5,319 bases of DNA from IMG/VR virus record IMGVR_UViG_2548876940_000001, positions 1 to 5,319 of that record, one strand, 5' to 3'. The stretch comes from a virus (lineage: Duplodnaviria; Heunggongvirae; Uroviricota; Caudoviricetes). Position 1 is the first letter of the stretch, and every line of letters begins with the position of its first letter. Positions 511 to 803 of this stretch are shown in pieces. The notes beneath the pieces were generated by a model. That model saw only the letters and a program-made list of their open reading frames with translations, ran no database searches and was not told where the DNA came from. The position numbers and the translations under genes were made by a program.

Positions 511-803
511 TCAATAAGCACCGTACGGTAGTTTACTGTACAATTTTATTTTTGGGACTGCATGTATTTTGTTTCCTAATGGGTTTGAATCCTTGTAATA
601 AATACTTCTATTTTTTCGAACAACTTCTTCTTTCTTCTTGCAGCAAAGGCTTCTTAGTGATGCTGCTTTGTCTGCTCTGACGCAACCAGAGAGCTTTAGC
701 GCAATTTTTCGCTACTGCGTCGCTCGGCAATAAGTTCTGCTCTGCGAGCTTTGTAGCGGCTTTTTGCCGTACCTTTGGATTCTTTCCAGACAATGGTTAC
801 CAT
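511..803 (-). pseudogene. N: Antitermination protein N, phage 21-type arginine-rich motif, interrupted by a frameshift and with a divergent C-terminal tail
   Basis: AGGAG (817..813) then ATG 803..801. Frame A reads MVTIVWKESKGTAKSRYKARRAELIAERRSSEKLR then TAA at 698..696; the GTAKSRYKARRAELIAERR segment is the phage 21 N boxB-binding ARM. The rest of N is in another frame (711..514): RKIALKLSGCVRADKAASLRSLCCKKEEVVRKNRSIYYKDSNPLGNKIHAVPKIKLYSKLPYGAY, stop TGA 513..511, preceded by an in-frame TAG at 714..712. No single frame spans the gene. Confidence 0.65.

Follow-up and report, generated by a model that had tools for sequence, protein, structure and literature searches.

Does an N gene that is found in two reading frames, broken just after its arginine-rich motif, still give the prophage that carries it a working antiterminator? 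The locus lies in a window of 5,319 bp, the whole stretch of DNA that was analysed, which is the reverse complement of the complete contig AIAU01000129.1 (assembly GCA_000446445.2), a short contig from a draft short-read assembly. A continuous ORF of ~100 codons, in which the arginine-rich motif is joined to the parts that interact with NusA and RNA polymerase (RNAP), is absent here, as the frame is split between positions 713 and 712. Our analysis leads us to conclude that a genuine 13-nt deletion has very probably frameshifted the N gene of an imm21/P22-type lambdoid prophage, with N function presumably lost and the prophage presumably crippled for lytic growth.

The immunity region and its two-frame N gene

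The window spans the region for immunity and replication of an E. coli lambdoid prophage of the imm21/P22 type. On the minus strand the order is cI, a terminator, pL, nutL boxA, nutL boxB, N, a nun-like gene, a second terminator and a relic of an N 3′ end, and on the plus strand cro, cII, O, P, ren, a 68-aa ORF, ninB and the start of dam. The cI gene (1118..1768, minus strand) is an intact ORF for a 216-aa LexA-like repressor of the cI/C2 type (P22 C2/phage 21 cI), which matches Pfam Peptidase_S24 and HTH_3 and equals in length the annotated repressors in mEp235 and E. coli Z1323PEC0008. Likewise, the lengths of the non-N genes of the window equal those of annotated counterparts in mEp235 or E. 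coli Z1323PEC0008. Directly after cI stands an intrinsic terminator (1102..1119, minus strand; a stem-loop and a T run), the counterpart of which is annotated in phage 21. The pL promoter, TTGACC-17-TAAATT (1000..1028, minus strand), was located by a promoter scan, overlaps the OL operators and aligns with the phage 21 region from OL1 to the pL start. Downstream, nutL boxA GCTCTTTA (946..953, minus strand) and the nutL boxB hairpin TCTCAACCTAACCGTTGAGA (914..933, minus strand; fold of -8 kcal/mol, z = -4.0) are identical to the annotated boxA-L and nutL stem-loop of phage 21, respectively, and a cognate nut site (boxA plus boxB) is present between pL and N. A scan of the window against Rfam found no family. 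At window positions 1813-1814, in the spacer between two OR operators (cI-cro), the contigs differ by one base: the window and the SRR21142969 contig read AAATTA-CCACC, the other carriers of the deletion AAATTACCCACC and the intact relatives AAATTATCCACC. This could alter the operator/promoter spacing, or be a miscounted C run.

Translation of the minus strand confirms that the N frame runs from ATG 803-801 through MVTIVWKESKGTAKSRYKARRAELIAERRSSEKLR to a TAA at 698-696, giving a 5′ fragment of 35 codons (696..803). While the program-made list of ORFs starts this frame at an upstream ATG at 833 (45 aa), homology places the N start at 803; a protein look-up with the 45-aa ORF returned no record, and gene callers use ATG 803. 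The remainder of N lies in the -1 frame as a 3′ fragment of 66 codons (511..711, minus strand) that reads RKIALKLSGCVRADKAAS...PYGAY from 711 and ends in a TGA at 513-511, and the frame starting at 801 has a TAG at 714-712, just upstream of this fragment. Both frames, both stop codons and an A5 run at 705..709 on the minus strand are where the original prediction had placed them.

Against phrog_271, the 35-aa piece matches positions 59-91 (E = 9e-9) and the 3′ piece positions 93-172 (E = 2e-13), two adjoining segments of one profile, from which it follows that they are the halves of one gene; these matches are far beyond chance. The same profile is matched by an intact N homolog with E = 4.6e-31. 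Pfam PF25694 (N_peptide) is a weak model for phage 21-type N, as the fragment scores 17.5 bits and an intact homolog 18.4 against a cut-off of 27.9. Residues 1-30 of the 5′ fragment are identical to N of phage 21 and mEp235, the whole boxB-binding arginine-rich peptide included, and residues 8-29 are identical at 22/22 positions to PDB 1NYB, the phage 21 N peptide solved with boxB RNA. Residues 31-35 (SEKLR) are out-of-frame junk. The 3′ fragment has no in-frame ATG, GTG or TTG before one TTG near its end, and therefore is not translated. Together, this makes the N locus a pseudogene and not a functional member of the lambdoid N family.

Immediately downstream of N lies an intact nun-like gene (170..508, minus strand) for a transcription termination factor of 112 aa, which matches phrog_5632 over positions 1-112/112 (E = 4.5e-71), corresponds to the annotated Nun in mEp235, contains SRDRRRIARWEKRIAYAL and has the C-terminal NKKWS with the KKW expected of Nun; exclusion activity is predicted. 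The identical protein is found on at least 1000 contigs. In HK022 the repressed prophage expresses Nun constitutively, which excludes lambda (PMC5386594). A terminator scan places an intrinsic terminator after nun (154..171, minus strand), and past it lies a relic of a phage 21-type N 3′ end (45..137, minus strand) that translates as NRIYYSKPRSEMGVTCVGRQKMKLGSKPLI up to a stop codon and matches the phage 21 N 3′ end at 96% by BLAST; its homologous stretch is described in RefSeq as 'regulator, incomplete, missing N-terminus'. A 10-nt direct repeat, TGTAATAAAT, occurs at 594..603 and 122-131, 472 nt apart, and brackets the nun cassette inside N. This 472-bp cassette, consisting of a new N 3′ end, nun and the terminator, sits in an ancestral phage 21-type N at the I-Y-Y codons, and the displaced original N 3′ end (…SEMGVTCVGRQKMKLGSKPLI, then a stop codon) stays as the relic past the nun terminator. 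The layout is common to phages mEp235 and mEpX1 and to many E. coli prophages, and since these two sequenced phages have the same architecture, the N-nun mosaic is not itself a defect. That mEp235 was deposited as a complete phage genome suggests that the architecture is functional when N is intact.

A gap of 2 nt separates the TGA that ends N (513-511) from the ATG of nun (508-506), a spacing that suggests translational coupling of N and nun in intact phages. In the window, ribosomes would stop ~185 nt earlier, and less Nun might then be translated from pL transcripts. N and nun are joined differently in the lineage of PA28, a Stx-converting phage, in which the annotated N (489-827) is 112 aa long and runs into the counterpart of the nun start (…PYGLIEYAYGEKDYLC, then a stop codon), and the sole ORF annotated downstream of N is a 45-aa hypothetical protein.

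The 13-nt deletion and its carriers

The original prediction put the lesion at about five missing residues, a 3n+1 deletion of some 13 nt that inactivates N, and proposed a nucleotide-level alignment to intact phage 21-type N genes as a check. We aligned the junction with phage 21 (OL657228), mEp235 (JQ182731) and the prophage of E. coli Z1323PEC0008 and found a single gap of exactly 13 nt, ATGAAGCACTGGC, between window positions 713 and 712 (minus strand), the placement of which is unique. Apart from the gap, the flanks are near-identical to those of the three intact homologs, with full identity over the surrounding 140 nt. In the window the junction reads GCAGTA followed directly by GCGAAAAA. 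The deletion takes out codons N31-E-A-L-A35 and shifts the frame by -1, while N of phage 21, mEp235 and Z1323PEC0008 continues through ...AERRSNEALARKIALKLSG... as one frame of 99 to 101 residues; intact homologs overall have one continuous frame of 99 to 112 aa. The A5 run, which lies 3 nt downstream of the junction, has the same length in the intact homologs. Inspection of the nucleotide alignment by eye revealed neither microhomology nor direct repeats at the deletion end points, and a 4-bp quasi-palindrome in the intact sequence (CAGT...ACTG) does not account for them.

The intact form is the rule. Every full-length match to window positions 1-1120 in E. coli exceeds the window by 13 nt (1133 against 1120 bases), as does the match in mEp235 (1090 against 1077 bases). 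A 101-nt probe spanning the junction has matches in 800 of 5,426 complete E. coli genomes, and in all of the best 350 of these 800 genomes it aligns as 101 of 114 positions, i.e. with the 13 nt present, none of the 350 being gap-free. Phages 21, mEp235 and PA28 also carry the 13 nt. A two-frame arrangement shared by intact homologs, which would have pointed away from a lesion, is thus absent from the best 350 of the 800 E. coli genomes and from the phage homologs.

The deletion itself recurs in a small number of records. The exact 36-nt junction is found on one IMG/VR contig (CYAZ01000093.1), and an exact-protein look-up with the 35-aa N product returned five contigs, all with the identical junction: AIAU01000129.1 (the window), CYAZ01000093.1 (GCA_001284505.1, the same contig as in IMG/VR), one Logan contig each from ERR180862 and SRR21142969, and an ENA metagenome scaffold. 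These five records represent two NCBI assemblies, two SRA runs and one metagenome, from independent projects and assemblers. By comparison, the intact 101-aa N protein is found on at least 1,000 contigs. Scans for the exact junction in other genome and metagenome contig sets gave no match, where the genome set, GTDB, holds one genome per species and is uninformative for a strain-level allele of E. coli. No publication turned up in a literature search for the accessions of the assembly and the runs.

Between CYAZ01000093.1 and the window there are 54 substitutions, concentrated in the O/P region, and both CYAZ01000093.1 and the metagenome scaffold differ from the window at positions 654 and 554. 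The divergence in O/P and the differences at 654 and 554 place the allele on at least two prophage backgrounds. We consider the deletion to be a real, rare and inherited allele.

Three substitutions, at 1077, 1032 and 1009, are common to all deletion carriers covering the pL region (all five), and the closest intact relatives are without them; the first lies within operator OL3, the second immediately before the pL -35 and the third in the middle of OL1. As read from these sequences, the linked haplotype suggests a single origin of the deletion followed by spread. Other truncated forms of N are seen on large contigs: a 35-aa product ending in ...NEALA on a 4.6-Mb contig, consistent with a CGA>TGA change at the next codon, and N-terminal stumps of 48-49 aa of the same N on contigs of 37-177 kb. 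Taken at face value, these hint that N has been truncated independently in other E. coli prophages.

Two further changes in the 3′ fragment are private to the window, 654 G>A (Gly>Arg) and 554 A>C (Gln>Pro), equivalent to G55R and Q87P. Neither occurs in the other deletion carriers that reach that far or in any complete E. coli genome, for which the best identity over positions 515-695 is 98.9%, with two mismatches. Both changes are nonsynonymous and would fit relaxed constraint after inactivation, although at two they are too few to prove it and are only suggestive.

Complementation, recoding, decoy and artefact

Even a real lesion might be phenotypically silent if another prophage in the same genome supplied phage 21-type N in trans upon SOS induction. 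Complete E. coli genomes often hold this N region more than once, at up to six places (up to four when counted with the junction probe). An indirect sign is that the two Logan contigs break off exactly 30 nt beyond the junction (window position 683), as contigs of a k=31 de Bruijn graph do where another sequence joins, for instance an undeleted N copy among the same reads. However, had such a copy been identical, it should have broken the Logan contigs upstream of the junction as well, and it did not. Lambda N acts preferentially in cis and is short-lived. We regard masking by a second prophage as unlikely. As a separate matter, N of the PA28-type Stx phages was considered as the joining sequence responsible for the contig ends at 683, and was rejected as too diverged around the junction.

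The original prediction also raised a ribosomal -1 slip on GAAAAA, which would restore a near-full-length N. Slippage on GAA-AAA-U (710-704) would yield ...ERRSSEK-IALKL..., four residues shorter than intact N and perhaps attenuated. The downstream frame is indeed -1 relative to the upstream frame, and the overlap between TAG 714-712 and TAA 698-696 includes A-AAA, where tRNA-Lys can re-pair without a mismatch. Its sequence is AGU AGC GAA AAA UUG CGC UAA, in which the A5 is the only conceivable, and a weak, -1 slip site: C GAA AAA does not conform to the heptamer X XXY YYZ and allows re-pairing in the A site only, as the P-site tRNA-Glu cannot re-pair on CGA. An A5 run is too short for transcriptional slippage. 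No Shine-Dalgarno-like stimulator is seen upstream, and the fold of positions 725-640 (-25.3 kcal/mol) is no more stable than expected from shuffled sequences (mean -24.35 kcal/mol, z = -0.30). The A5 and the bases downstream of it are the same in intact genes, which indicates that nothing here has evolved for slippage, and the two-frame arrangement is conserved in 0 of the best 350 of the 800 E. coli genomes and in 0 phage homologs. Moreover, any product would be without NEALAR, the place at which lambda N contacts NusA, as residues 34-47 of lambda N, just after the arginine-rich motif, bind NusA AR1 (PMC2724277). Programmed -1 sites such as those of dnaX, IS elements and the phage tail-assembly chaperone G/GT resemble the N locus in having overlapping -1 frames with an A-rich run in the overlap; they differ from it in that the N overlap is without an X XXY YYZ heptamer, a stimulatory structure or conservation, and its homologs are single-frame. 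With neither heptamer, stimulatory fold nor conserved arrangement, recoding is very improbable.

Could the 35-aa peptide be useful in itself? It holds the entire boxB-binding segment of PDB 1NYB, and the allele is old enough to be found on two diverged backgrounds, so that a role as a boxB(21) decoy against N of superinfecting or co-resident phage 21-type phages, with an outcome like that of Nun exclusion, can be envisaged. This is countered by the repression of pL by the intact cI in the lysogen, which means that the peptide would be absent when exclusion is needed, by the rarity of the allele (5 contigs, against at least 1000 for the intact protein) and by the tail SEKLR, which is frameshift junk. 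A decoy function is extremely improbable in our judgement. We likewise give very little credence to the broader proposition that the allele is not simply dead, be it through trace slippage that allows a strongly attenuated induction or through a boxB(21) decoy that dampens development driven by phage 21-type N.

Finally, a sequencing or assembly artefact, in which the real genome would have the 13 nt and an intact N, is almost certainly not the explanation, as the draft short-read origin of the contig and the A5 run 3 nt from the junction are outweighed by the complex sequence of the missing segment, by an A5 of unchanged length relative to intact homologs, which also disposes of the homopolymer error entertained in the original prediction, by the independent assembly of the same junction in five records with two haplotypes, and by the absence of a repeat at the junction, without which an assembler is unable to create it unless reads support it.

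Consequences for the prophage and comparison with known systems

We thus return to a genuine deletion that has inactivated N. Translation from the normal start would yield a 35-residue peptide that keeps the full arginine-rich boxB-binding motif and ends at TAA 698-696, while the 66 codons in the -1 frame, which by position would carry the NusA- and RNAP-contacting parts, would not be made for want of a start. In lambda N it is the C-terminal part that contacts RNAP, and N is an intrinsically disordered protein. As pL, boxA and boxB are intact, the peptide could still bind nut RNA after derepression and yet would not build a termination-resistant polymerase. Delayed-early transcription would then stop at the first terminators of the pL and pR transcripts, and the prophage would fail to develop. 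The expectation of a peptide with the boxB-binding part and without the NusA and RNAP parts agrees with the sequence, in which residues 8-29 equal 1NYB and everything after residue 30 is lost; its binding to boxB is predicted from that identity. By analogy with lambda N, from which we infer the loss of N function, the allele should be N-null and the prophage defective in induction.

Immunity (through cI) and Nun exclusion would be retained, to judge from the intact genes. The original prediction had suggested an inactivating lesion in a cryptic prophage, of which the lesion in N is real and the cryptic state is not apparent, as N is the only gene of the 5.3-kb contig with visible damage. With all other genes in these 5.3 kb at full length, the rest of the prophage may be functional.

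For annotation, entry CTT78216.1, a 35-aa ORF named 'transcription antitermination protein N', is a pseudogene stump and should be flagged as such, and the prophage is to be scored as one that probably cannot be induced unaided. The locus is a clean natural example in which one small lesion should be enough to disarm a lambdoid prophage, with the genes of benefit to the host kept intact, namely the repressor for immunity and Nun for exclusion of lambda. The mutation is an ordinary gene-killing one and a case of prophage decay, a type of event that is already well known. A deletion in N next to intact cI and nun fits the accepted picture of prophage domestication and opens no long-standing question.

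Among known systems, phage 21 N (UMO75464.1 in OL657228) is identical or nearly so in codons 1-30 and in the leader from pL through boxA to boxB, and its protein matches the window through ~codon 72 once the frame is repaired. It differs from the window N, which is missing 13 nt after codon 30 and has a 3′ third of the mEp235 type. The likeness to phage 21 N that was originally recognised therefore holds for the first ~72 codons and fails at the 3′ end, owing to the nun cassette. By its arginine-rich motif and nut site, the window N falls into the phage 21 specificity class, and from ~codon 72 onward it is of the mEp235/E. coli prophage type.

N of mEp235 (AFM76257.1) and of E. coli prophages (WP_000256573.1) is embedded in the same order of cI, pL, nutL, N, nun and relic as in the window, with 97-98% identity over 1.1 kb. 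In these relatives N is one frame of 101 codons, to which the window adds the 13-nt deletion and the two private substitutions.

In function, the nearest likeness would be to the classical lambda N-null mutants and to defective lambdoid prophages of E. coli. In lambda N-null mutants delayed-early transcription is blocked at terminators and immunity is maintained, and the same combination of kept immunity and abortive induction would be expected for the window. The lambda N-null mutants are laboratory nonsense alleles, whereas the window carries a natural frameshift deletion in an N of another specificity class.
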